Shown here: one piece after another, positions 1 through 44,250 of the stretch
Position numbering within the stretch: position 1 is the first letter of the stretch
Layout: each line of letters begins with the position of its first letter
From: Sphingomonadaceae bacterium
GTDB taxonomy: Bacteria; Chloroflexota; UBA6077
Reading direction: 5' to 3'
Length of the DNA stretch: 62,867 bases
Assembly (NCBI GenBank): GCA_050261575.1
Contig: JBLNDL010000008.1
Coordinates: 1 to 62,867, forward strand
Made by a program: the position numbers and the translations under genes
The notes under the pieces: generated by a model
Seen by the model: the letters and a program-made list of their open reading frames with translations, nothing else
Told to the model about the DNA's origin: nothing
The model's database searches: none

Positions 1-67
1 CGTTATCTCCAGTTCACGACAACTTCTGTGGCGGGAACGCTTACTCAATCTAGTGGTGCCTGCTCAG
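1..67 (-). repeat. ~75-nt dispersed hairpin element, copy 0 (diverged, cut by window edge)
   Basis: Reverse complement reads CTGAGCAGGCACCACTAGATTGAGTAAGCGTTCCCGCCACAGAAGTTGTCGTGAACTGGAGAT, which aligns to the copies at 1536, 29895, 39295 and 42876. Confidence 0.8.
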
Positions 68-1411: not shown

Positions 1412-1505
1412 TGGAGCCTGGGTTGTCTCAACCCAGGCGGTCGGTGGCTCCACTTGCCGGGAGTCGATGCCCGAGGTCCGTCGGGGTTGTCCCAACCCCG
1501 GCTCC
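1412..1505. repeat. Pair of REP-like hairpins (GGAGCC-stem-TGTCYC-stem family)
   Basis: CCTGGGTTG-tct-CAACCCAGG and GTCGGGGTTG-tcc-CAACCCCGGC; related hairpins at about 84-114 and 3356-3384. Confidence 0.6.
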
Positions 1506-1535
1506 GAAAGGTCTTACCCGGGTGACTACCCGCCT

Positions 1536-1612
1536 CTAAGCAGGTGTCTCTGGATAGTAGAGCACACGTTTCCCGCCGCCGAAGTTGACGTGAACTGGAG
1601 ATGCCTGCCTAG
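1536..1612 (+). repeat. ~75-nt dispersed hairpin element, copy 1 (tupA leader)
   Basis: CTAAGCAGGTGTCTCTGG...CACGTTTCCCGCCGCCGAAGTTGACGTGAACTGGAGATGCCTGCCTAG; outer stem with G-U pairs, inner stem CACGTT/GACGTG. Confidence 0.9.
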
Positions 1613-28828: not shown

Positions 28829-29782
28829 CTATCCCATCGCCGCGACGACGGCGCCCGTCGCCACCAGATTCAGCAGGGTCACGGGCAGCAGAGCCTTCCA
28901 CGCGAAGCCCATCAGTTGGTCGGGGCGCAGCCTTGGCAGGGTTGCACGCAGCAGGATGAAGAAAGAGATGAAGAAGAAGGTCTTGAGGAAGAACCAGACC
29001 AGCGGCGGCAGCACCGGGCCGAGCCATCCCCCGAAGAACAGCGTCGTGATCAGCATGGAGATCAGGGTGATGCCCATGTACTCCCCGACGAAAAACATCC
29101 CGAACTTCATGCCGGAGTACTCGGTGTGGAAGCCTGCCATCAACTCGCTCTCGGCCTCCGGCAGATCGAAGGGCGCCCGCCGGGTCTCGGCGACGCCGGC
29201 TACGAGGAAGGCCACCAGGCCGAGGAACTGCGGCACGCAGAACCAGATCCTTTGCTGGGCCTCGACGATGTCGCTCAGGTTGAACGACCCGGCGATCATC
29301 ACCACTCCCATGAGCGACAGCCCCATGAACACCTCGTAGCTGAGCATCTGTGCAGCGGCCCGCATCGCACCGAGGAGGGGGTACTTGCTGTTAGAGGCCC
29401 ATCCAGCCAGCACGATGCCGTACACGCTCATCGAGGACATGGCGAGGAAGAAGAGCAGCCCGATGTCGAGGTCCGCCACGACGATGCCCGGGGCGAAGGG
29501 GACGACGGCGAAGGAGGCCATCACCGCGATCAGGATGATCGTCGGGGCGAGGACGAAGATGCCCCTGCTAGCGAAGGGCGGGATCCAGTCCTCCTTGAAG
29601 AATATCTTGATCATATCCGCCGGCACCTGCAGCAGTCCGAAGGGGCCAACCCGATTGGGGCCGTACCGGTCCTGCCACAGCGCCAGTAGCCGCCGCTCCA
29701 CGTAGATGAGCGACGCCGCGATGGCGATCACGACGGCCAGGACGGCCAGGACCACCGCTATCGGACCGAGGATCTCGTTCAA
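28829..29782 (-). CDS. nuoH: NADH-quinone oxidoreductase subunit H
   Basis: [31 protein letters not shown]. Confidence 0.96.
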
Positions 29783-29894
29783 TCTAGTACTTCACAATCG
29801 TGTTCTGGTGGCGGCCATCCTGAGCCGGTTCGCCATCCTTTGCGGCAGCTTCGCCCAGTATGGCAACGGGTGTCACAGCCACCTTGGACGGGTG

Positions 29895-29968
29895 CCAAGC
29901 AGGTATCTCCAGGTGCCGTACTCGTTTCCCGCCAGAGAAGTTGACACGAACAAGACATACCTGCTTAG
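29895..29968 (+). repeat. ~75-nt dispersed hairpin element, copy 2 (antisense in the nuoG-nuoH spacer)
   Basis: CCAAGCAGGTATCTCCAGG...CTCGTTTCCCGCCAGAGAAGTTGACACGAACAAGACATACCTGCTTAG. Confidence 0.88.
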
Positions 29969-29976
29969 ACAGTCGC

Positions 29977-32748
29977 TCACCAGCGACCCCACTCGATTTT
30001 GGTCGGCAAGGTAACCCCCTCGAGTCCCGGCAGCCCCGCGGGAACGCCGGCAACCCCTGGGGGTAGGGTTGGGATCAGCTTCAGCGCCAACCGGCGCATT
30101 CTGCCCCCCAACTCCACGTCGAGCTCCTCACCCTCCCGCAGCCCGTGCCGCTCCGCCTCCTCCGGGCTCAGGGCCAGGTAGGGTTGCGGTGCGAGTTCCG
30201 CGATGCCCTTGCTCGAGACGCTCAACTCCTCGGACCCGAAGATGTGGTAGAGAGGGACCACCAGCCACTCGCCGGGCCGAGGCTCGAAGGCTTCGGGTGC
30301 TCTCTCGAAGAGGTCGGGCTCCGCGCCCAGGACGGGCTCGATCAGCCGCTTCCCTGGGGAGCCACCCCGCAGCGGCCCCGAGACCTCCTCCTGGAACTTG
30401 ATGAGGGCCTGCTCGGAGTTCCAGCCGGGGGCCCAGAAGCGCGGGATCAGGGGCGAGGGTGGCTGGCCCTGGTAGCCCTCCATGGAGAAGGCGAGGGGGC
30501 TATCCGGATCGTCGGGCGGCTTCGGCTCGCTGACGTCGATGTTAGCCGTCATGGCTGTGCGCCCGCTGTATCGATAGTGCTGGCGGGCGATCTTCGTGCC
30601 GTGTATCCGGAAGGTGCTGGGGGGCGCGATCTCCGCCACGGGTTCGAAGACGGGCACGGCTTTCGCAAACGCCCCGACGACGTCGTCCAGGGAATCCCAG
30701 AGCATGGGTCTATCCCATCCGGTGGCGACCGCTACATCCCTTAGCCATCGCCAGCTTTCCTGCACCGTGCCCTTCGGAACGAACACCTGGTAGAAGCGCT
30801 GCGCGCGTCCCTCCTGGTTCACGAGGGTGCCGTCGGACTCGGCGAAGGTGGCGGCGGGCAGCACCACGTCCGCCTTCACCGTGGTCCGATTGGCCAGGTG
30901 GTCCAGGACGACCACGTTGGGGGCGGCCGCGAGGAAGGCATCCACCCTCGCGGCATCCGCCCGCCTGTAGAGGTCGTTCTCCAGGACCACGACGGTGTCG
31001 GCTCGCCCCTCCTGCACCGCACGGAACGCCTCCTGGATGCTCTTGCCGCCCAGGAGGCCGAGCCCCAGGGTGTTGCACTCGGATACCACGTAGGAGAGGC
31101 TGGCCGGGCGGCCCGCCCGCCTCAGCGCCCACGCCACATCGGCGGCGGCCTGGACGATCTCTTCGCTGCCCAGGCTGGTTCCGGAGACGACGAGCGGGCG
31201 CTCGGCGTCCAGCAACGCCCGCGCGACGGCATCCGCGAGGTCGCGCACCTCGTCGGGGAGGTCCAGGCCGGCCGCTCCCTTGCCTTTCCCTGCCTGGCCG
31301 CTCACCTCCTCCGCGACGGCGAAGCCGAGGCGGGCCAGATCGGCCGGCGCGGCGTGGAAGCTCCGGGTGGCCACATCCGCGAGACGGGTCTCGGCGGCGG
31401 TAGCCAGGAAGAGGGGTCCGGTCTCCTGGCCGATCACCTCCCGAGCGGCGGCATCGTTCCACTGCGGGATCCCCATGGCTGCCACCTTCTTCAGCGGTTG
31501 CTGTCGCACCGATTGGCGAAGCGCCAGCGCCAGCATGGGAGCCGCGTTGGTGACGTCCTCCCCCAGAACCAGCACGGCGTCGGACTCCCTGACCTGCTTC
31601 AAGGAGGCGGACGGTGCCGGCCCATCTCGGAGGATCCTGAGCATCGTGGAGACGAGCCGAGCCTCCCCCTCGGACATCCCCAGGTAGAAGTTGTCAGGCC
31701 CGACGAGGGTGCGAAGCGCGAAGTTGGCCTCCAGCGAGGCCCTGGGGGAGCCGATCCCGATGACGCGCTTGCTGCGGGACAGGATCTTGCCCAGTTGCTC
31801 TAGTGCCTGTTCCGGCTCGATGGGCCTGAGGGCTGAGGACTGACGACTGAGCCCGGGCGGCGCTTCCTCGGTCCTCACTCCTTGGCTCTCGGTCCTCGCG
31901 AGGGGCTGGCGGATACGGCGGTCGCTGTTCACGAACTCGTAGCCGAAGCGGCCGCGATCGCACAGGAAGTTCCAGTTCACCTCTTCGTTGTAGCGTGTGC
32001 GTATACGCCTCAAGAGGTCGTACCGCTCACCGGGGATGGTGTTGCAGCCCACCGAGCAGTGCACGCAGATGGAGGGGGCGGTTTGGAGGTCCCACTTGCG
32101 GGCGTAGTGGCTGGAGAAGGTTCTGTCGGTGAAGACCCCGACGGGGCACACCTCCACCAGGTTCCCCGCGAACTCGTTCTCCAGGACGCCGTCCTCGTAG
32201 CGGCCGAAGTACACTGAGTCGTGGATGGCGAAGACGTTCAGATCCCGACCTCCAGCGTAATCCCTGTAGTAGCGGACGCAGCGGTAGCACTGGATGCAGC
32301 GGTTCAGCTCGTGGTTGACGAAGGGCCCGAGGTACTGGTTGCGGTAGGTGCGCTTCTTGAACCGGCTGCGCCGGTACACGTGCCCCGTCATCAGGGTCAT
32401 GTCCTGGAGGTGGCACTCGCTCCCCTCGTCGCACACAGGGCAGTCGTGGGGGTGGTTCAGCATCAGCCACTCGATGACCCTTGCCCGAAACGCCTTGGCA
32501 TCGGGGTCGTCGATGGAGATGCGGGCCCCGTCGGCGGCCGGCGTCATGCATGCCATGACGATCCTGCCGCGGGTGTCCTTCTCGTCTCTGAACTGCTTCA
32601 CCGCGCACTGCCGGCAGGCCCCCACGGAGTGCATGGCCGGATGCCAGCAGAAGAAGGGCAGGTCGAAGCCCAGGGAGAGGCACGCCTGAAGCAGGTTCTG
32701 TCCGTCTTTGACCTCGTAGGGCCTGTTGTCCACGTAGATCGTCGGCAT
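29977..32748 (-). CDS. nuoG: NADH-quinone oxidoreductase subunit G (long, E. coli type)
   Basis: CWHP..GACRQC; HPHDCPVCDE..EC; CIQCYRC; N7 motif CVHCSVGCN...C. Confidence 0.96.
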   Translation of the reverse strand: MPTIYVDNRPYEVKDGQNLLQACLSLGFDLPFFCWHPAMHSVGACRQCAVKQFRDEKDTRGRIVMACMTPAADGARISIDDPDAKAFRARVIEWLMLNHPHDCPVCDEGSECHLQDMTLMTGHVYRRSRFKKRTYRNQYLGPFVNHELNRCIQCYRCVRYYRDYAGGRDLNVFAIHDSVYFGRYEDGVLENEFAGNLVEVCPVGVFTDRTFSSHYARKWDLQTAPSICVHCSVGCNTIPGERYDLLRRIRTRYNEEVNWNFLCDRGRFGYEFVNSDRRIRQPLARTESQGVRTEEAPPGLSRQSSALRPIEPEQALEQLGKILSRSKRVIGIGSPRASLEANFALRTLVGPDNFYLGMSEGEARLVSTMLRILRDGPAPSASLKQVRESDAVLVLGEDVTNAAPMLALALRQSVRQQPLKKVAAMGIPQWNDAAAREVIGQETGPLFLATAAETRLADVATRSFHAAPADLARLGFAVAEEVSGQAGKGKGAAGLDLPDEVRDLADAVARALLDAERPLVVSGTSLGSEEIVQAAADVAWALRRAGRPASLSYVVSECNTLGLGLLGGKSIQEAFRAVQEGRADTVVVLENDLYRRADAARVDAFLAAAPNVVVLDHLANRTTVKADVVLPAATFAESDGTLVNQEGRAQRFYQVFVPKGTVQESWRWLRDVAVATGWDRPMLWDSLDDVVGAFAKAVPVFEPVAEIAPPSTFRIHGTKIARQHYRYSGRTAMTANIDVSEPKPPDDPDSPLAFSMEGYQGQPPSPLIPRFWAPGWNSEQALIKFQEEVSGPLRGGSPGKRLIEPVLGAEPDLFERAPEAFEPRPGEWLVVPLYHIFGSEELSVSSKGIAELAPQPYLALSPEEAERHGLREGEELDVELGGRMRRLALKLIPTLPPGVAGVPAGLPGLEGVTLPTKIEWGRW

Positions 32749-32927
32749 CCTCTATCTCCACCGGCACCGTTTCTCGGTGATCACGTCTGGCGGCGGAGCT
32801 GTGGCCGCAGGCTTCAGCCTGCACGCACCCGCAGGTCCGCCCCCTGCAACCGCCCGCGGTCTCTACATGCGTGGCGCGGCGGTGTGCTGCACGTGCCAAC
32901 GGGTGCAGCCAAATGGCCATTCCTCGC

Positions 32928-34202
32928 TCACCGCCACGGGCAGCGCTTCTCCCTCACGTGCCTCTCGAAGTCCTCTCGGAAGAGCTTCAGGGCGCTTTGC
33001 AGCGGCTCGACCGCCCCCGGCGCGAGCGCGCAGAAGGTGTTGCCCGGGCCGAGCAGCCCGCACATCTGCGCGAGCGTCTCCAAGTCCTCCGGTGCCCCGT
33101 TCCCATCCTCCAGGGCCTGGAGCAGGTTCCTCACCCAGGGCAGCCCCTCCCTACAGGGGGTGCACCAGCCGCAGGACTCCTGAGCGAAGAACTGCTCCAG
33201 ATTCAGCACCATCCCCACCGGACAGGTGCGGTCGTCCAGGACGATCATGGTGCCGGTGCCCAGCCGGCTGCCGGCCGCCTGCACCGACCCGTAGTCCATC
33301 TTCACATCCAGGTGGTCCGCCACCAGGAAGTCGGTGGAAGCGCCGCCGGGCTGCAATCCGCGGAATCCGTAGCCCTCCCGCATCCCGCCAGCGTGCTCCT
33401 CCAGGATCTCCCGGATGGTGGTGCCCATCGGCAGCTCCCACACGCCGGGCCGCTTCACCCGGCCGCTCACCCCGTAGATCTTCGTGCCCCCGTCGGGCGA
33501 CCGGCTCAACCCCTTGTACCACTCCGCCCCGTTGTTCACGATGTGGGGCACGTTGCAGAGGGTCTCCACGTTGTTCACCACGGTCGGCTTGCCCCACAGC
33601 CCCGCCGTCTGGGGGAAGGGAGGCCTCGCGCGGGGGGTGGCTCGTTTCCCCTCAAGGGAGTTCAGCAGGGCGCTCTCCTCGCCGCAGATGTAGCGGCCGG
33701 CGCTGGTGTGAAGCCGCATCTCCAGGCTGTAGCCCGATCCCAGGATGTTCTTCCCCAGGTAGCCCGCTTCGTAGGCTTCGCCGATCGCCTTGCTCAACAG
33801 TCGGGCCGACAGGACGTACTCGCTCCTCAGGAAGATGTAGGCGACGTCGGCCTGGATGGCGTAGGCCGAGACGATCATCCCCTCGACCAGTTGGTGGGGG
33901 TCGCGCTCCATGAGAAACCGATCCTTGAAGGTGCCCGGCTCCATTTCGTCGGCGTTCGCCACCAGGTACTTCGGCCGCCGGACGTCGTCGCCCATCGGGA
34001 CCACGCTCCACTTGATGCCCGTCGGGAACCCGGCGCCACCGCGCCCCCGCAGGCTCGAGTCCTTCACCACCTGCTGGACGTCCTGTGGCGACATGCTCCC
34101 GACGGCCTTCCGCACCGCCTGGTAGCCGCCGGCCCTCTCGTATCCCCTCAGGTCCAGGGGCTCCTCCCCGGGCCGGATGTTCTTAGTCAGCGGTCTTTCC
34201 AT
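32928..34202 (-). CDS. nuoF: NADH-quinone oxidoreductase subunit F
   Basis: RGRGGAGFPTG; NADEMEPGTFKD; YICGEESAL; ESCGWCTPCREG. Confidence 0.96.
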   Translation of the reverse strand: MERPLTKNIRPGEEPLDLRGYERAGGYQAVRKAVGSMSPQDVQQVVKDSSLRGRGGAGFPTGIKWSVVPMGDDVRRPKYLVANADEMEPGTFKDRFLMERDPHQLVEGMIVSAYAIQADVAYIFLRSEYVLSARLLSKAIGEAYEAGYLGKNILGSGYSLEMRLHTSAGRYICGEESALLNSLEGKRATPRARPPFPQTAGLWGKPTVVNNVETLCNVPHIVNNGAEWYKGLSRSPDGGTKIYGVSGRVKRPGVWELPMGTTIREILEEHAGGMREGYGFRGLQPGGASTDFLVADHLDVKMDYGSVQAAGSRLGTGTMIVLDDRTCPVGMVLNLEQFFAQESCGWCTPCREGLPWVRNLLQALEDGNGAPEDLETLAQMCGLLGPGNTFCALAPGAVEPLQSALKLFREDFERHVREKRCPWR

Positions 34203-34298
34203 CCAGGTTCCCAGTCCTCGTCGGTTGGCACGGCGGGCGGGCGGGCCAGCAGCGCGTGGCGAGCGCGAGCGCAGCGTCACGCGGTCCCCACGGCCCCC

Positions 34299-34763
34299 CT
34301 ACGGGTAGCTCGCCAGGATCGCCTCCAGCTTCTCCGGGGTCAGATCCCCGTGGAGGTCTTCGTCCACCATCATCGCGGGGGCGTGGTCGCAGGCCCCCAG
34401 GCATACTATGGGCAGCAGGGTGAACCTGCCGTCAGGCGTGGTCTCGCCGAAGTCGACGCCGAGCAGACGGGTCAGGTGGCTCTTCACGTCCTCGTACCCC
34501 ATGATCCAGCAACTGACGCTGTTGCAGACCAGGATCACGTGCCTGCCCACCGGCCTGCGGAATATGAGGTTGTAGAAGGTGGCCACTCCGTCCAGTTCGG
34601 CGGGGGTCATGCCCAACAGCTCGCCCAGGTCGTGGAGGCTCTCGTCGGACACGTAGCCGCGGTGGCGTTGGACCACCTTCATCGCCTCTATGCAGGCGGC
34701 CGACCTGTCCTCGTAGTGGCTCAGCTCGGCTTCGATCTCCCGTCTCTCTTCCTCGGTCAACAT
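34299..34763 (-). CDS. nuoE: NADH-quinone oxidoreductase subunit E
   Basis: VATFY; CNSVSC; CLGACDHAP. Confidence 0.95.
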   Translation of the reverse strand: MLTEEERREIEAELSHYEDRSAACIEAMKVVQRHRGYVSDESLHDLGELLGMTPAELDGVATFYNLIFRRPVGRHVILVCNSVSCWIMGYEDVKSHLTRLLGVDFGETTPDGRFTLLPIVCLGACDHAPAMMVDEDLHGDLTPEKLEAILASYP

Positions 34764-34881
34764 CTTTCTGTCTTGCGCCAGTCTGTTGTTGCCCTGGGTC
34801 CTGGGTCCTGAGTCCCGAGTCCTTCAGACAGCACGACAGCACTCAGGACGCGGGACCCAGCACTCGGGTTTGGCTCCTCGA

Positions 34882-36633
34882 TCATCGGTCCACGTCCGAC
34901 AGCACGAAGTCGATGCTGCCCAGCGTGGAGATCAGGTCCGACACCATGTAGCCCCTGCTGGTAAGCGGCAGCGTCTGCAGGTGGGCGAAGGAGGGGGTGC
35001 GGATCCGGTTCCGGTACGCGGCGGTGCTGCCGTCGCTGATCAGGTAGAAGGCCATCATTCCCTTGGCCGCCTCGGTGATGATCTGCGCCTCGCCGGCCGG
35101 TATGACTGGACCCCAGCTCACGTTCAGGAAGTGGGCTATCAGGGTCTCGATGTCGTACATGGTGTTGGTGTCCTTGATCGGGGGAGTCGCCAGTGGATGG
35201 CGGGACTTGTAGGGACCCTCGGGCATGTTGTTCAGACACTGCTCGATGATCCGCAGGCTCTGCCACATCTCCTCGACGTGCACCACGGCCCGCCCGTAGC
35301 AGTCCCCGCGATGCCAGGTGGGGATCTCGAACTCGAACTGGTCGTAGCCGGAGTAGGGGCGCTTCTTCCGCATGTCCCACTCGAGTCCGCAAGCGCGCAG
35401 GCCCGGCCCCGTCACCCCCCACTCGATGGCCTGGTCCAGGGTGTACTCCCCGATCCCTATCGTGCGTTCCTTGAAGATCCGGTTCCGCATCACCAGGCTG
35501 TCGTACTCTTTCAGCTTCGGAGGCATGTAGTCCAGGAACTCGCGGACGAGCCTATCCCACCCCCTCGGCAGGTCGGCGGCGACCCCGCCGATGCGGAACC
35601 AGCCCGGGTGCATCCGAAAGCCAGTGACCGCCTCGATGATCTTGAATGCCTGCTCACGGTCGTTGAACATGTAGAACACCGGGGAGAGCGCGCCGAGGTC
35701 CTGGGCGTAGGTGCCGTACCACACCAGGTGGCTGATGATGCGGAACAGTTCCGTCAGCATCACCCGGATCACCTTGGCCCGGTCCGGCACCTCGATCCCC
35801 GCTAGCCGTTCCACCGACATCAGGTAGGCGATCTCGTTCACGAAGCCGCCCACGTAGTCGATGCGGTCGGTGTAGGGGAGATAGGTGTGCCAGGTCTGCC
35901 GCTCGCCAAGCTTCTCCTGAGCCCGATGGTGGAACCCTATGTCCGGGACGCAGTCGACGATCTCCTCGCCGTCCAGTTGCAGGACGATGCGGAAGGGGCC
36001 GTGGGTCCCGGGATGCTGCGGCCCCAGATTGAGGAACATGAACTCCCCCTCGGTCCCCCGAGCCGTGAGTCCCCAGTCCTCCGGATTGAACTGCAGCGCC
36101 GCCTGCTCGGTGGCGCCCCTTTCCTCTGTCAGGATGTAGGGACCCATTTCGGTCCCACGAGAGGGGTGCTCCTTGCGCAGGGGGTGGCCTTTCCACGTGG
36201 TGGGCATCAGGATGCGCCGTAGGTTGGGGTGGCCCTCCACCACGATGCCGAACATGTCCCACACCTCTCGCTCGTACCAGTTGGCCGAGGGCCAGATGTC
36301 GGTCACGGTGCGAATGGTGGGGTACTCACCCTCGAGGGCGACCTTGATCCGGACGTCGGCGTTCCGGTCGTAGGACAGCAGGTGGTAGACGACGGTGAAG
36401 TCGGCGGCCGGCTGGCCCTCCCTGCGGGACCTCATCCGCTCGTCGATAGCGGTCAGGTCGAAGAGGGTGCGGAAGGGGCCGGGCACCTCCGTCTTGAGGA
36501 ATCGGAGGACATCCCTGACCCTATCCCTGTCCACCCACAGAGTGGGAAGGCCGTCCACGGTCGGCTGGGCCGTGAAGGCGATGTCCGGAAACCTGCTCTG
36601 CAATTCCCGAATGACGTCCGCGTCGCCGCTCAT
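34882..36633 (-). CDS. nuoCD: Fused NADH-quinone oxidoreductase subunit C/D
   Basis: NuoC part [18 protein letters not shown] joined to NuoD part [21 protein letters not shown]; ends DFVLSDVDR. Confidence 0.95.
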
Positions 36634-36790
36634 CGACTGCACTTCACCACTTTGCACATCAGGTCGTCCCACGATCTCGCGGTGCAGGGCGGGCGTGTCG
36701 CTGCGCTCCCGGGCCGTCCCCACATCGGCAGCCGCAGGCTTCAGCCCGCGTGTGCCGCGGGGCGAACCCACATCCTGCCCCACTCCGGTG

Positions 36791-37429
36791 CTAGACCTCG
36801 TCCGGCGGACGGAGCAGGGTGACCCGCTGCCGCTCGGCTCGCTTCAGGTCCCGGAACGATGGGAGGGCCGGGCGCTCCACCCCCTGGGGGCCGACCACCC
36901 AACTCAAGGGGCGTTTCTCCTTGCCCACCAGGTCCTGCAGGAGGCGCAGCCCCTCTATCAAGGTGTCGGGGCGAGGGGGACAGCCCTGGACGTAGACGTC
37001 CACGGGTAGGAACTTGTCCACCCCCTGCACCACGCTGTAGACGTCGAACATCCCGGCCGAATTGGCGCAGGAGCCCATCGAGATCACCCAGCGGGGAGCC
37101 ATCATCTGCTCGTACAGCCGCTGGATGATCGGCGCCATCTTGATGAACACCGTCCCGGCGACCACCATCACGTCCGCCTCTCTCGGCGAGGAACGGATCA
37201 CCTCCGAGCCGAAGCGGGCGAGGTCGTACTTGCTCGTGAGGGTGGTAGCGAACTCCACGTAGCAGCATGAGAGGCCGAAGTTGAAGGGCCACAGGGAGTT
37301 CCTTCGACCCCACGCCAGGAGGTCCTGCAGACGGCTCAGCAGGACGCTGCGGTGCGCGGACTCCTCGAACGAAGCATCGCCCCCCGCCATCGGCGCCGGG
37401 GCGTCGGGTCGGCTGAACCACCATCCCAT
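36791..37429 (-). CDS. nuoB: NADH-quinone oxidoreductase subunit B
   Basis: [25 protein letters not shown]. Confidence 0.96.
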
Positions 37430-37446
37430 GGATCGGTTATCCCTTT

Positions 37447-37836
37447 CTATCTGGAAGCGCCTCGCTTCAGCCTGGTGGTACCCCAGTCGAGCGCAGCCTG
37501 CCGCCACAGGTAGGCGAGGGCGGCCAGGAGCGACACCACGAAGAAGGCGGCGGCGAAGAATCCGAGCCAGCCCAGGTCGCGGGCCGCCACTGCCCAGGCG
37601 AAGAGGAAGGTGGCTTCCAGGTCGAACACCACGAAGAACATCGCAACCAGGTAGTACTTGACGTCGAAGCGCACCCGTGCGGATCCCGTGGGGACGATGC
37701 CGGACTCGAAGGGCTGCCCGGTCTGGGGTTGCAGGTGGCGCTCTCCCAGGACGTAGGACAGCCCGACCATGATCCCCACGACGGCGATGATGAGGGCGAA
37801 GTAGACCGCGAAGGGCCAGAGAGCGATTTCCTGCAC
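37447..37836 (-). CDS. nuoA: NADH-quinone oxidoreductase subunit A
   Basis: [23 protein letters not shown] start with GGAGG RBS. Confidence 0.94.
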
Positions 37837-38123
37837 CGTGCAGAAGCCTCCGCATCGTGTTCCTCGGCCGCCGTCGGCCCCGCAGCGGATCCTCGTGGTG
37901 GCCAACATCGCGACCACGGCGACGCCCTCGAGGCTTCTCCGGCCTCGGCCGGACGCCCGGAGGGCTGGCGGCCCTGGTGCCCGGATCGATCGTGGGGAAG
38001 CATCTCGGGGCCGCTTCATACCCTCTTGCAACTTGCGGACCAACAACCAGGTTCTCCGGGGTGGTTCACGCGCGGCGCTCCGCTCCGGCACGTTTCCGAT
38101 GTTGCGCGATGTCGGGCATTGCC

Positions 38124-38141
38124 CTATGATTCAGTTCACAA
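38124..38141. promoter_or_regulatory. Possible Rex operator upstream of the nuo operon
   Basis: Minus strand TTGTGAA-ctga-ATCATAG versus TTGTGAA-N4-TTCACAA; one half-site perfect, the other 4/7. Confidence 0.35.
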
Positions 38142-38336
38142 TCGAACAGTCCTTTCGGCTGCTTTTGGGAGCAGGCGATTCCGGTGGTGAACCGGAGTGG
38201 GGCCGGGCTTTGGAAGGCAGCGAGCGTAAGCTCGTGGGACTCGGTGGCCGAGGGGTGATTTCGCGGTCGAGATCGCCCAGGCTGTCGGAGTCCGACGGGC
38301 TTTTCTGTTCCCGTCGATGGAGCGGAGGTTCATGGA

Positions 38337-39257
38337 GTGTTCTCGTCCAAACAGGGGGTGGCTACCCTCTCCGTCGTGTCCAACTCACTGCTGGTAGTCT
38401 TGAAGCTGACCGTGGGTATCGCCATCGGCTCGGTCAGCGTGATCTCGGAGGCCGTGCACTCCGGCATCGACCTGCTGGCGGCCATCATGGCTCTCTTCGC
38501 CGTTCGAGCTTCGTCGCGGCCGCCGGACGATGGCCACCACTTCGGACACGGCAAGGTGGAGAGCCTCTCCGGCGCCGTCGAGGCGCTGCTGATCTTCGTT
38601 GCGGCCATTCTGATCGTCGGCGAGGCCGTCCAGAAGCTGCTACACGGCACCGAGCTGCAGGCTGTGGACCTGGGTATCGGTGTGATGGCGGTCTCCGCCG
38701 TGGTGAACACGGTGGTATCGCGGCTGCTGCTGAGTGTCGCAAGGGCCACCGACTCTGCGGCCCTGGAGGCCGACGGCTGGCACCTAACCACCGACGTGCT
38801 GACATCGGTCGGCGTCGCGTTGGGTCTCATTGCCGTCCGGCTCACCGGCCGCTCGGAGTTGGATCCCCTTATCGCAATAGGGGTGGCCCTCTTCATATGC
38901 AAGGTGGCCTTCGACATCACCTCGAGGTCCGTCCGGGATCTGCTGGATTCCAGCCTTCCCAAGGAGGAGCAGGCGTTGATCCGCCTTGCCCTGGATGCGC
39001 ACCGGGCGGACGTGGTGGGCTACCACCGCATCCGATCCCGCAAGGTGGGCGCCGAGCGCCACGTGGACCTGCACCTCGTGGTACGCCGCGACGCCACGGT
39101 CCAGGAGTCCCACGACCTCTGCGACCACCTGGAGGACCATCTCCGGTCGGCGCTGGGTTCCTGCTCGCTGGGCATCCACGTGGAGCCCTGCCGTGGCGAG
39201 TGTGGGAAGTGCCATCTGGCCTGCCCGCCGTCCGAGGAAGAGGCCAAGCCCGCGTAG
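38337..39257 (+). CDS. Cation diffusion facilitator (FieF-like) transporter
   Basis: SEAVHSGID; HHFGHGKVE; ADGWHLTTD; C-terminal dimerisation domain ending IHVEP. Confidence 0.92.
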   Translation: MFSSKQGVATLSVVSNSLLVVLKLTVGIAIGSVSVISEAVHSGIDLLAAIMALFAVRASSRPPDDGHHFGHGKVESLSGAVEALLIFVAAILIVGEAVQKLLHGTELQAVDLGIGVMAVSAVVNTVVSRLLLSVARATDSAALEADGWHLTTDVLTSVGVALGLIAVRLTGRSELDPLIAIGVALFICKVAFDITSRSVRDLLDSSLPKEEQALIRLALDAHRADVVGYHRIRSRKVGAERHVDLHLVVRRDATVQESHDLCDHLEDHLRSALGSCSLGIHVEPCRGECGKCHLACPPSEEEAKPA

Positions 39258-39285
39258 GGCTGCCTGGCAGGGCCGGAAGGGCCGA

Positions 39286-39294
39286 TGCTATACT
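39286..39294 (+). promoter_or_regulatory. Extended -10 promoter for the gatCAB leader
   Basis: TG-C-TATACT immediately before element copy 3. Confidence 0.6.
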
Positions 39295-39370
39295 CTAAGC
39301 AGGTATCTCCAGAGAGAGCACACGTTTCCCGCCAGAGAAAGCCGACGTGAACTAGGAATACCTGCCTTAG
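39295..39370 (+). repeat. ~75-nt dispersed hairpin element, copy 3 (gatC leader)
   Basis: CTAAGCAGGTATCTCCAGAGAGAGCACACGTTTCCCGCCAGAGAAAGCCGACGTGAACTAGGAATACCTGCCTTAG. Confidence 0.9.
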
Positions 39371-39403
39371 GTTGGGGCGACCGTACGGTCGCCCCAACCT
39401 AAG
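39366..39403. repeat. Perfect 38-bp palindrome (REP-like)
   Basis: CTTAGGTTGGGGCGACCGTACGGTCGCCCCAACCTAAG is its own reverse complement. Confidence 0.9.
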
Positions 39404-39427
39404 AACCCAGAACCGCAAGAGGCAGCT

Positions 39428-39745
39428 ATGAGCATCAGCCGTGAGGAAGTGGAACACGTTGCCTATCTGGCCAGGGTGGGTCTCACCGAGGAGGAGAAGG
39501 AGCGCCTCCGGGGGCAGCTATCGGACATCTTGGGCCACGTGGCCATGATCAACCAGTTGGACACCGAGGCGATCCCTCCGACGGCTCAGGTGATCCCGCT
39601 TCAGAACGTCATGCGCCCCGACGAACCGGGGGTGTGCTACCCGCCAGAGGCGATCCTATCCAATGCCCCCAGGGCCGAGGATCACTATTTCAAGATCCCG
39701 CCTGTCCTGGAGGAAGTCCCTCTCGATGGCCCACCGGAGATCTGA
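39428..39745 (+). CDS. gatC: Asp/Glu-tRNA amidotransferase subunit C
   Basis: [29 protein letters not shown]. Confidence 0.95.
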
Positions 39746-39830
39746 GAAGTGCTGCGTCCTGGGACCTGCGTCCTGAGTAGTCGAATACGCCCGCAGGACA
39801 GGGGACTCAGGACCCGTAAGGAGAACGGTC

Positions 39831-41288
<1,458 letters not shown>

Positions 41289-41366
41289 TGAGGATCAAGG
41301 ACTGAGGAGCTGATAGCCGGTAGCCAATTGCTAGAAGCTTGTCAGTCCTGTTCAAGGAGCGAGATC

Positions 41367-42806
41367 ATGGAATACGAGCCGGTGATCGGTCTTGAGGTCC
41401 ACGCGCAGTTGCTGACGGAGAGCAAGATGTTCTGCTCCTGCAGCGCGGACTACGCGGGCGCGGCGCCCAACACCCACGTCTGTCCGGTCTGCCTGGGGAT
41501 GCCCGGCGTGTTGCCCGTCATCAACCAGAAGGCGGTGGAGTACACCGTCATGACTGCCCTGGCCCTCAACTGCCAGATACCGGAGTTCAGCAAGTTCGAC
41601 CGAAAGAACTACCCCTATCCGGACCTGGTTAAGGGGTATCAGATTTCCCAGTACGATATGCCGCTCAGCCGCGACGGCTGGATTCAGGTCGAGACCGACG
41701 GCCAGGTGAGTCGGGTCGGCATCATCCGGGTGCACCTGGAGGAGGACACCGCCAAGCTGCTCCACGTGACCGACGAGAACGGCCAGAGCTACAGCCTGGT
41801 GGACGTGAACCGCTCGGGGGTCCCGCTCATGGAGATCGTGAGCGCGCCGGATATCCGGTCACCCCAGCAGGCCCGAGCCTACCTGATCAAGCTGAGGGCG
41901 ATCCTCCAGGCGCTGGGGGTCTCCACCGGCAACATGGAGGAAGGCTCCTTCCGCTGTGACGCGAACGTCTCCATCCGTCCGAAGGGGAGCAAGGAGTTCG
42001 GCATCAAGACCGAGGTGAAGAACATGAACTCCTTCCGCTCGGTCCAGCGGGCGCTGGAGTACGAGATCAAGCGGCAGGCGGCGGTGCTAGAGCAGGGCGG
42101 CCGGATCGTCCAGGAGACCCGAGGCTGGGTGGAGGACAAGGGCATCACCGTCAGCCAGCGAACCAAGGAGTACGCCCACGACTACCGCTACTTCCCGGAG
42201 CCGGATTTGCCGCCCATGATGTTGGGCCGGGAGTGGGTGGAGAACGTTCGGGCGAAGCTGCCCGAGCTGCCCGATGCTCGCCGCGACCGCTTCGTCGCCC
42301 AGTACGGTCTGGATAGGGAGAGCGCCCGACTGCTCACCGAGAGCAGGGCGACCGCCGAGTTCTACGAGAAGACGGTCGGCCTCTACCCCAACCCCAGAGC
42401 GGTATCGAACTGGATGCAGGGCGAGCTGTTCCGGCTGCTGAAGGACGGCGAGGGCGACGTGAGCGGCACCAAGCTCACCCCCGAGATGCTGGCCGAGCTG
42501 CTGCAGATGGTGGAGAAGGGGGCCATCAACGCCCGCACCGCCAAGGAAGTGTTCGAGGAGATGTTCAACACCGGCGAGCCGGCCGGGGAGATCGTCAAGG
42601 AAAAGGGGCTCACCCAGATCAGCGACACCGCCCACCTCGAGCTGGTGGTGGACGATGTGATCAAGAACAACCCCCAGGCGGTGGCCGACTACCGGGCCGG
42701 CAAGGCGCCCGCCATCGGTTTCCTGGTGGGCCAGGTGATGAAGCTCACTCGCGGCCAGGCCAACCCCGGGGTGGTCAACAAGCTGCTCAAGGACAAGCTG
42801 GGGTAG
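41367..42806 (+). CDS. gatB: Asp/Glu-tRNA amidotransferase subunit B
   Basis: VIGLEVHAQL; HLEEDTAK; DYRYFPEPDLP. Confidence 0.97.
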   Translation: MEYEPVIGLEVHAQLLTESKMFCSCSADYAGAAPNTHVCPVCLGMPGVLPVINQKAVEYTVMTALALNCQIPEFSKFDRKNYPYPDLVKGYQISQYDMPLSRDGWIQVETDGQVSRVGIIRVHLEEDTAKLLHVTDENGQSYSLVDVNRSGVPLMEIVSAPDIRSPQQARAYLIKLRAILQALGVSTGNMEEGSFRCDANVSIRPKGSKEFGIKTEVKNMNSFRSVQRALEYEIKRQAAVLEQGGRIVQETRGWVEDKGITVSQRTKEYAHDYRYFPEPDLPPMMLGREWVENVRAKLPELPDARRDRFVAQYGLDRESARLLTESRATAEFYEKTVGLYPNPRAVSNWMQGELFRLLKDGEGDVSGTKLTPEMLAELLQMVEKGAINARTAKEVFEEMFNTGEPAGEIVKEKGLTQISDTAHLELVVDDVIKNNPQAVADYRAGKAPAIGFLVGQVMKLTRGQANPGVVNKLLKDKLG

Positions 42807-42809
42807 GGA

Positions 42810-42875
42810 CCCCTATCCCCTGCCCCCTTCCCTTAACGGGAAGGGGGTTTTCATTCTCCCCCCGCACGGGGAGGG
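42810..42875. repeat. CCCTCTCCC/GGGAGAGGG-type hairpin repeats
   Basis: CCCCCTTCCC-ttaac-GGGAAGGGGG and CTCCCC-ccgcac-GGGGAG; same style as 11850-11880, 21520-21552 and 48172-48221. Confidence 0.6.
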
Positions 42876-42951
42876 CCAAGCAAGTATCTCTAGATAGAGT
42901 AGACGTTTCCCCCCATGAGAGTTGACGTGAACCGGAGATGCCTGCCCTGAG
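42876..42951 (+). repeat. ~75-nt dispersed hairpin element, copy 4 (rlmD leader)
   Basis: CCAAGCAAGTATCTCTAGATAGAGTAGACGTTTCCCCCCATGAGAGTTGACGTGAACCGGAGATGCCTGCCCTGAG; abuts the RBS. Confidence 0.87.
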
Positions 42952-42966
42952 GAAGAGGTTAACGCG

Positions 42967-44250
42967 ATGGCGAAGAGAGAGCGCAAGGTAATCGGACCGG
43001 TAGAGCTGACGGACATGGCGTACGGCGGGGAGGCCGTGGGGCGCCACGAGGGGATGGTGGTGTTCGTCTACCTGGGGGCCCCTGGCGACATCGCCACCGT
43101 CGACGTCACCATCACCAAGAAGAGCTTCGCTCGGGGCAGCATCGTCGACCTCGTTCGGCCCTCCGATCTCCGCACCACCCCTCCCTGCCCCTACTTCGGC
43201 AGTTGCGGGGGCTGCCAGTGGCAGCACATCCGCTACGAGGAGCAGATCAAGCTCAAGCAGCACCTGGTGGCCGAGGCGTTCGAGCGGATAGGACACCTGC
43301 CCGTTGAGGTTCTGCCCACTCTTGGCATGGATCACCCGTGGCACTACCGCAACACCATGGAGTTCGGCTTCACCTTCGAGCAGGAGCCGGGCCTCCGGCG
43401 GCTGCGGGGGCACCGCATCGTGCCGATCGGGGAGTGCATCATCTCCAGACTGGAGATCAACGAGGTTCTGGGACTGCTGTGGGACTGCTTCTACCGGGAG
43501 AAGATGGCGGAGGTTACCCCTCACAACGCCTTCGTGAGGGTGGGAGACGGCCCCGCGCCTCGCACCGTGGTCGGACTCTGGGGCCACGGGGAGTGGCCGC
43601 ATATCGCCGACCGGATGGTGCAGGACCGGCCTGACCTGATCGCCGGAGTCGTTCAGCGGAAGGGCCGGAGCTCCGAGAAGGGGCGCATCCTCTTCGGACG
43701 GGACTACACCGAGCACGAACTGCTGGGCAAGCGCTACCGGGCCAGCCTCGCCTCCTTCTTCCAGGTTAACCACACCCAGACCGAGGTGCTGATCCGAACC
43801 GCTCTCGCATTCCTCCAGCCGGAGCCCGACCAGGTGGTCCTGGATGCCTACTCCGGGGTGGGCACCTTCTCCCTCCAGCTCGCCGACAGGGTCGCGAAAG
43901 TGGTGGCCGTGGAGGCCAGTCCATCGGCCAACGTAGATGCTAGAATGAACACGGCCGGGTTGGACAACGTGAGTCTGGTGGAGGGGAACTTCGGCGAGGT
44001 GACCCTGCCGGTCGAGCGGGTCGACGGCGTGGTCATCGACCCCCCGCGAGGAGGGGTTGCCCCCGAGGGGTTGGACGCGCTCGTGCGGCTCTCGCCTGAG
44101 CGGATAGTCTACGTCTCGTGCGATCCCACCACCTTGGCTCGGGACGCCGCCTTGCTGGTTGGGGCGGGCTACCGCCTGGAGCGGGTCCAGCCGATCGACC
44201 TGTTCCCGCAAACCTACCATGTGGAGACGGTGGCCCTCTTCCTGCGCTGA
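42967..44250 (+). CDS. rlmD: 23S rRNA m5U methyltransferase (RlmD/TrmA family, TRAM domain)
   Basis: CPYFGSCGGCQWQH; SFFQVN; DAYSGVG; DPPR; YVSCDP; DLFPQTYHVE. Confidence 0.92.
   Translation: MAKRERKVIGPVELTDMAYGGEAVGRHEGMVVFVYLGAPGDIATVDVTITKKSFARGSIVDLVRPSDLRTTPPCPYFGSCGGCQWQHIRYEEQIKLKQHLVAEAFERIGHLPVEVLPTLGMDHPWHYRNTMEFGFTFEQEPGLRRLRGHRIVPIGECIISRLEINEVLGLLWDCFYREKMAEVTPHNAFVRVGDGPAPRTVVGLWGHGEWPHIADRMVQDRPDLIAGVVQRKGRSSEKGRILFGRDYTEHELLGKRYRASLASFFQVNHTQTEVLIRTALAFLQPEPDQVVLDAYSGVGTFSLQLADRVAKVVAVEASPSANVDARMNTAGLDNVSLVEGNFGEVTLPVERVDGVVIDPPRGGVAPEGLDALVRLSPERIVYVSCDPTTLARDAALLVGAGYRLERVQPIDLFPQTYHVETVALFLR

Follow-up and report, generated by a model that had tools for sequence, protein, structure and literature searches.

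Correia elements of Neisseria, also termed NEMIS, are repeats of 100-155 bp that contain IHF sites and parts of promoters. The account in PMC2229807 describes them as having a terminal TA, long terminal inverted repeats, of 24 bp in Correia, duplication of the target, a long hairpin in the transcript and many intergenic copies. In the same account RUP, a MITE of pneumococcus ascribed to IS630-Spn1, appears as a short, non-coding, intergenic sequence of 107 bp with terminal inverted repeats, present in some 100 or more copies and inserted at TA, whose contiguous 9-bp termini resemble those of an IS in the same genome and for which mobilization in trans by a transposase of the IS630 family is presumed (PMC2229807). 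IS630 is tabulated as having CTAG as its target and a 2-bp duplication (PMC2577343, Table 1, citing Tenzen and Ohtsubo 1991), and IS5-type elements are reported to favour CTAG too but to duplicate 4 bp (PMC3189936, PMC9241763). MITEPsy1, an IS5-type MITE of Pseudomonas syringae, measures 100 nt, has termini of 18 nt and is reported to favour CTAG or YTAA (PMC3189936), and in Coxiella functional genes are described whose final 1-50 bp are overlapped by copies of QMITE1 and QMITE2 (PMC5896051).

Here we characterize a dispersed element first noticed in a window of 62,867 nucleotides, the whole stretch of DNA analysed, which is contig C8 of a bacterial assembly (G000) of 3.72 Mb in 103 contigs with 65.4% G+C. 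An earlier note on this window had described five copies of a hairpin-forming sequence, three of them ahead of genes, and had left two readings side by side: a new cis-regulatory RNA or protein-binding motif, or a MITE-like element that ends in CTAAG/CTTAG, is moved in trans and may have been co-opted as a leader. From a genome-wide census, alignments of the copies, their gene contexts and comparisons with related genomes, we conclude that the element is very probably an old, decaying MITE, inserted into CTAG with duplication of TA, and not a regulatory RNA.

Copies in the window and across the genome

All five copies are present where they had been placed in the window (Table 1). The four complete ones lie on the + strand; the fifth, on the minus strand, is truncated and matches positions 2-66 of the 76 positions of the model. 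With up to two mismatches tolerated, a 13-mer from the core has 7 matches in the window, where 2.14 would be expected; none of 100 shuffles contained as many. The layout originally proposed was borne out as well, comprising an outer inverted repeat, a purine-rich linker, CACGT...ACGTG and a conserved centre, and the four G-T pairs described in the outer stem of the focal copy are found there together with one A-C mismatch. The inner stem does not hold up across copies, its central position being a C-A mismatch in most of them (C-G in 9 of 44). As had also been reported, the focal, gatC and rlmD copies end 42, 57 and 15 nt, respectively, before the called starts of genes for a tupA-like binding protein (PBP_like_2, tungstate/molybdate type), GatC and an RlmD-like methyltransferase. 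The nuo copy is antisense to the nuoH/nuoG-like operon in which it lies. Twelve DNA sequencing runs, from soil or sludge metagenomes, carry the window; no RNA run is among those listed.

Table 1. Coordinates of the element and of neighbouring features in the window, and of nested copies on other contigs whose in silico excision restores an outer copy
Feature	Position	Strand	Detail
Copy cut by contig/window start	1..67	-	nhmmer match C8 67-4, E 9.8e-10
Second dispersed repeat	1412-1513		just upstream of focal copy
Focal copy, full length	1536..1612	+	nhmmer E 2.3e-21; covariance model 77.3 bits
Focal copy, left terminal inverted repeat	1536..1553	+	includes target C and TA
Focal copy, right terminal inverted repeat	1595..1612	+	includes TA and target G
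Focal copy, target halves	1536 and 1612		C and G of CTAG
Focal copy, TA duplication	1537-1538 and 1610-1611		
Focal copy, mobile core	1539-1609		
nuo copy	29895..29968	+	between nuoH-like (28829-29782, -) and nuoG-like (29977-32748, -) genes
NiCo (nickel/cobalt) riboswitch match	38158-38244	+	39.5 bits against gathering 37; directly upstream of CDF cation-efflux gene
gatC copy	39295..39370	+	between cation-efflux gene (38337-39257) and gatC (39428-39745)
Palindrome	39371-39400		G+C-rich, 30 nt; directly after gatC copy
Terminator-like hairpin	42822-42848		with T tract, 3' of gatB; just before rlmD copy
rlmD copy	42876..42951	+	between terminator-like hairpin and RlmD-like gene (42967-44250)
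Nested copy (outer copy restored on removal), contig C76	21748-21821		score 86
Nested copy (outer copy restored on removal), contig C6	49505-49578		score 84
Nested copy (outer copy restored on removal), contig C73	9797-9870		score 40
Nested copy (outer copy restored on removal), contig C58	34419-34491		score 38

The window also yielded a further dispersed repeat, roughly 100 nt long and with two 15-bp palindromes (GGGTTGTCYCAACCC; Table 1). It recurs at C25 8031-8134 and C7 9190-9287, its copies being 72-79% identical, and solo palindromes occur near position 60596 of C43 and near position 109288 of C11. The window copy of this repeat was considered as a Moco-type riboswitch or operator pair and rejected as such: its best Rfam score was 17 against 39 bits, and the other copies adjoin unrelated housekeeping genes.

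To inventory the element genome-wide, an HMM was constructed from the four complete window copies and applied with nhmmer at a cut-off of E <= 1e-5. It retrieved 175 non-overlapping loci (92 on the + strand and 83 on the - strand), 162 of them near full length, and, with two mismatches at most, the 18-mer terminus occurs 173 times in the genome, against a single match for the reversed control. The consensus of the 162 copies is 74 bp long with inverted termini of 18 bp. Its ends read C-TA-AGCAGG...CCTGCT-TA-G, of which AGCAGG...CCTGCT constitutes the mobile core, and the terminus reads TA-AGCAGGTATCTC. Alignment of these copies with 25-nt flanks revealed sharp borders, the information content dropping from 1.4-1.5 bits at the outermost C and G to about 0 in each flanking column. 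The element thereby combines the attributes of a MITE: it is short and non-coding, with terminal inverted repeats, dispersed copies, random orientation and a target-site duplication. A further attribute, a cognate autonomous IS with matching termini, was not found in the genomes searched.

Orientation, folding and decay of the copies

A new structured RNA, whether a riboswitch-like leader or a protein-binding hairpin, acting in sense orientation ahead of genes such as tupA, gatC and rlmD, is very unlikely to explain the element. In its favour, three of the four complete window copies are sense and lie 15-57 nt before gene starts, the folds of copies are slightly more stable than those of shuffled sequences (z -1.6 to -2.8), and the centre of the element is well conserved. 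Genome-wide, however, orientation is random. When gene contexts were assigned with a crude, purpose-made ORF and codon-score caller (3041 calls), 103 copies lay between tandem genes, 51 of them sense and 52 antisense; the remainder were divergent (27), convergent (20), overlapping a call (19, mostly through over-extension of start codons) or at contig edges (6). Within 100 nt upstream of called starts there are 30 sense and 34 antisense copies, and at 10-65 nt there are 17 and 16. The three sense copies in the window are accordingly a small-sample effect, and the suggested co-option as a leader gains no support. The genes adjoining copies have no common function.

Nor do the stems covary. At the 27 base pairs of the consensus fold there are 73 compensatory double changes across the 162 copies, where column frequencies predict 77.8, and mismatches in the outer stem are as readily A-C (244) as G-U (258). 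A second alignment comprised 44 copies, namely the four from the window and 40 of the 116 other near-complete copies, taken in even steps down the score ranking. In this alignment 87.2% of the cells of helix 1 are paired, pairs altered on both sides number 5 against 7.1, and the two stems originally proposed (23 pairs) have a covariation score of 0.112 against a shuffled mean of 0.121, which 469 of 500 shuffles reach. The earlier note had itself held that random orientation without covariation would argue against an RNA function, and that combination is what the copies display. Its further proposal that the fold is strand-specific did not survive: the focal copy folds at -25.8 kcal/mol on the + strand and -25.2 on the - strand, and over 162 copies the means are -26.19 for the model strand and -26.84 for the opposite strand, the model strand being the stabler in 76 (p 0.23). 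The single copy in the relative G001 retains near-perfect termini around a different centre.

The element also went unrecognised by Rfam: a scan of the window at gathering thresholds found no match at the element, only the NiCo riboswitch elsewhere, and scans by E-value of 20 copies and the focal region yielded one sub-threshold match to a miRNA hairpin, at one of the 20 loci (34.5 against 80 bits), and no other.

It is true, as had been observed, that the unpaired core is kept about as well as the stems, yet the centre is no better conserved than base composition predicts: conservation in the termini is 0.79 at A/T and 0.93 at G/C consensus positions, and in the interior 0.77 and 0.90, respectively. 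The 'loop' appears conserved because all positions decay alike, conservation following the consensus base and not the region. A>G (626) and T>C (530) predominate among the substitutions, with 134 C>T and 119 G>A; from a consensus at 45% G+C the copies have shifted to 53%, in the direction of the 65% of the genome. Identity to the consensus ranges from 0.68 to 0.95 (median 0.85), and no pair of copies is more than 92% alike. This pattern of decay is that of one old burst followed by neutral change. As part of the reading of the whole element as a MITE, the hairpin and its conserved 'loop' were in all likelihood inherited from one master copy, and are not a selected structure. Some 13 kb (0.35%) of the genome then consists of one hairpin-forming repeat that, in a single window, mimics a leader RNA motif, and masking it prevents false riboswitch or sRNA calls.

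One departure from uniform decay was noted. The TA within C-TA-G contexts of the element (consensus positions 2-3, 16-17, 58-59 and 72-73) decays more quickly (conservation 0.69) than the remaining A/T positions (0.80; p 0.0007), nearly always through a single transition to CCAG or CTGG; double changes are rare, at 6-7 per site. Vsr was considered as the cause and set aside, no Vsr domain having been found in the genome.

Insertion at CTAG and candidate transposases

Copies nested within other copies disclose how the element inserts. From 161 copies the core and one TA were removed in silico, and the rejoined flanks were aligned to the consensus. An outer copy was restored across the junction in four cases (Table 1), all of them complete insertions at the outer copy's own TCTC-TA-G, and in 138 of the 161 the rejoined-flank score stayed at the background of 10-19. 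Several one-sided nested remnants were seen in addition (on C42, C63, C40 and C67). Restoration of these four outer copies by removal of the core and one TA identifies CTAG as the target and TA as what is duplicated; the TAs are flanked by C in 146 and by G in 149 of the 162 copies. A direct duplication of 3 or 4 bp was rejected, the left CTAA and right TTAG being inverted with respect to each other. The suggestion of a MITE-like element with CTAAG/CTTAG ends is in this way both supported and sharpened, the outermost C and G being the halves of CTAG and the TAs its duplication. No filled and empty pair of orthologous sites was seen, so the target model rests on the four nested copies, which constitute a natural record of CTAG/TA targeting in a lineage without genetics. 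Contigs from four sequencing runs covering window positions 29001-43500 include, among the joints listed, none that skips a copy, and one such contig spans the nuo copy in its filled state.

A transposase supplied in trans would have moved the element by cut-and-paste, entering the TA of the palindrome CTAG and duplicating it, a signature that has been published for IS630 (IS630/Tc1-mariner superfamily). We infer on this basis that the mover was an IS630-type transposase, for which no partner was found. A single old burst would then have generated about 175 copies, followed by neutral decay towards high G+C.

The genome itself contains no DDE_3 gene, and a search for mariner-type domains, whose control matched nowhere, found none. 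Its lone DDE_Tnp_1 gene was considered as the partner and rejected, with ends unrelated to the element, and no transposase or HUH gene bounded by the element's ends, which the earlier note had thought worth seeking, was found there. The 20 orphan termini in the genome include no pair 1-2 kb apart; several are the outer halves of nested copies. Since the assembly lacks contigs shorter than 3 kb, a collapsed IS may have dropped out of it, and the partner's absence is weak evidence either way. Among five relatives, four possess DDE_3 genes, and three of the relatives' DDE_3 elements have C-TA...TA-G ends: those at L057 (arms 1203 nt apart), L053 (1158 nt) and L056. The termini of these three IS630-type elements, however, start with GT after the TA, and those of the MITE with AG; a TAAGCAG terminus was present at none of nine DDE_3 loci in four relatives. 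A partner with matching termini was likewise not found in 65 other genomes of the class, in 400 other genomes of the phylum (overlapping samples) or in metagenome contigs. In one relative (G001, contig C83) an unrelated MITE of about 156 bp was observed at L056 1210-1365, with 34-nt arms starting CTAGTACAC; it adjoins an IS630-type element with the same ends.

These searches leave some room for a transposase of another kind, such as one of IS5 type favouring CTAG/YTAR, or an undescribed enzyme. That possibility, which we regard as improbable, draws on the failure to find an IS630-type partner with the element's termini and on published IS5-type elements, MITEPsy1 included, that insert at CTAG or YTAA (PMC3189936, PMC9241763). 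IS5-type elements, however, leave a direct 4-bp duplication, at odds with the inverted CTAA and TTAG ends seen here, and the nested copies fit only a 2-bp duplication of TA. In this genome, moreover, DUF4096 was not found and DDE_Tnp_1_2 gave a sub-threshold match only. Least probable of the readings weighed is a REP-like palindrome mobilized by a RAYT/HUH tyrosine transposase of IS200/IS605 type. The element is an abundant, extragenic, palindromic repeat, as that reading would have it, but its terminal inverted repeats are genuine and it duplicates TA, and no Y1_Tnp (HUH) domain was found in the genome by a search whose control matched in 6 of 14 genomes. REPs are described, furthermore, as units of 20-40 bp in BIME arrays of alternating orientation, and the element is not so arranged.

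Gene ends, relatives and known elements

The preferred reading, a MITE targeted to CTAG, bears on where copies are tolerated. CTAG is depleted in this genome (3033 observed against 6514 expected from trinucleotides); outside the copies, 1739 instances lie in coding sequence, 804 are intergenic and 311 are at C-TAG stops. TAG is the most used stop, which is unusual for a genome of 65% G+C: in our own ORF calls it accounts for 47-48% at every score cut-off, with TGA at 40-42% and TAA at 11%. The core has A as its first base and T as its last, so that a C-TAG stop receiving an insertion would become C-TAA on either strand, and the gene would keep its stop. With CTAG rare and TAG the commonest stop, gene ends would offer frequent and harmless landing sites. 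The called stop of a neighbouring gene coincides with the terminal triplet in 55 of the 162 copies (TAA in 28, TGA in 16, TAG in 11), or in 55 of the 158 cases where an element end faces the 3' end of a gene, and it is through such insertions that 28 of 327 called TAA stops stand in a CTAAG context. Occupancy is higher at stop-CTAG (55 of 366) than at other intergenic CTAG (88 of 892), with an odds ratio of 1.6 (p 0.011) as reckoned from present-day CTAG and crude calls. This excess is modest, and selection against other sites can explain it.

Could the hairpins at gene ends have acquired a function? REP elements affect translation, and a subset of the MITE might have been co-opted, the hairpin at the stops of 55 genes stabilizing the mRNA 3' end or slowing termination and so tuning expression. 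Besides the start of these 55 copies inside a stop codon and the higher occupancy of stop-CTAG, this would accord with effects on expression of MITE or REP hairpins at 3' ends, as raised in the discussion of Coxiella QMITE (PMC5896051). We nevertheless consider co-option unlikely: no part of the element bears a sequence sign of selection, and purifying selection against other sites accounts for the stop-site excess equally well. A stronger version would have the ends themselves adapted to colonise stops, TA-A and T-TA rebuilding a stop on either strand, with the hairpin at about 55 stops subsequently recruited for termination or mRNA 3' stability; judged from sequence, this too seems unlikely. 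If it were true, a TAG-rich genome would offer a MITE safe harbours at stops genome-wide.

Beyond this genome the family is sparse. A search of 40 relatives with a covariance model matched three: G001 with one copy, G002 with about five copies having a co-varied terminus, and G016 with one mini form of 54 nt. Of 65 other genomes of the class, 4 contain the terminus, each one or two times, and in 400 other genomes sampled from the phylum, outside the bacterial family, matches are single per genome, with singles of the reversed control similarly scattered. The variant terminus proper to G002 has 28 matches there, against 3 for the control. The MITE family is old and confined to one bacterial family. 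Single terminus matches in G002, G003 and G064 were discounted, being variously a related but longer MITE, a solo end and a coding sequence that matches by chance. A 16-mer terminus scan of genome contigs, with at least 112 single matches in unrelated taxa and none of 80 scored loci real, was set aside as uninformative on distribution. Metagenome contigs contained no match to a 20-mer or to an 18-mer terminus, and a blastn search of a plasmid collection with one copy gave none.

Sister MITEs were observed in two of these relatives. Those of G001 are 150-300 nt long with a third variant of the terminus (L201 1971-2267, L202 1973-2251, L203 2142-2292), and those of G002, on many contigs, come in two lengths, 75 nt with co-varied termini and 146 nt. 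Both families share only the terminal C-TA-AGCAG with the element described here. A superfamily sharing so little across genera would point to an undescribed, long-lived lineage of transposases. In G001, an ORF at L042 441-1574 (contig C103) covers the one copy of the element there in full and has as its stop the TAG of the right terminus; the element may thus encode a C-terminal extension of the protein.

Set beside described systems, the element shares target and duplication with IS630 (PMC2577343) and its C-TA...TA-G architecture with the relatives' DDE_3 elements, but it has no transposase gene and its termini are unlike those of the relatives' IS630-type elements. MITEPsy1 is described as duplicating 4 nt directly (PMC3189936), and this element duplicates only TA. 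The overlaps of Coxiella QMITEs with genes are reported to vary in length and to alter C-termini (PMC5896051), whereas here a fixed 3-4 bases recreate the stop. No literature joining MITE, Chloroflexi and IS630 was found in the part covered. Correia elements resemble it in their terminal TA, long inverted repeats, target duplication, hairpin and abundance between genes, and differ in that no promoter or terminator consensus was found inside the window copies. RUP shares its short, non-coding, intergenic character, terminal inverted repeats, high copy number, insertion at TA and presumed mobilization in trans by an IS630-family transposase; in contrast to RUP, this element is 74 bp long with 18-bp termini, is strict for CTAG, has no known partner, and is old and decayed in a high-G+C soil bacterium. 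RUP with IS630-Spn1, together with the Correia elements, are nonetheless its closest known counterparts.
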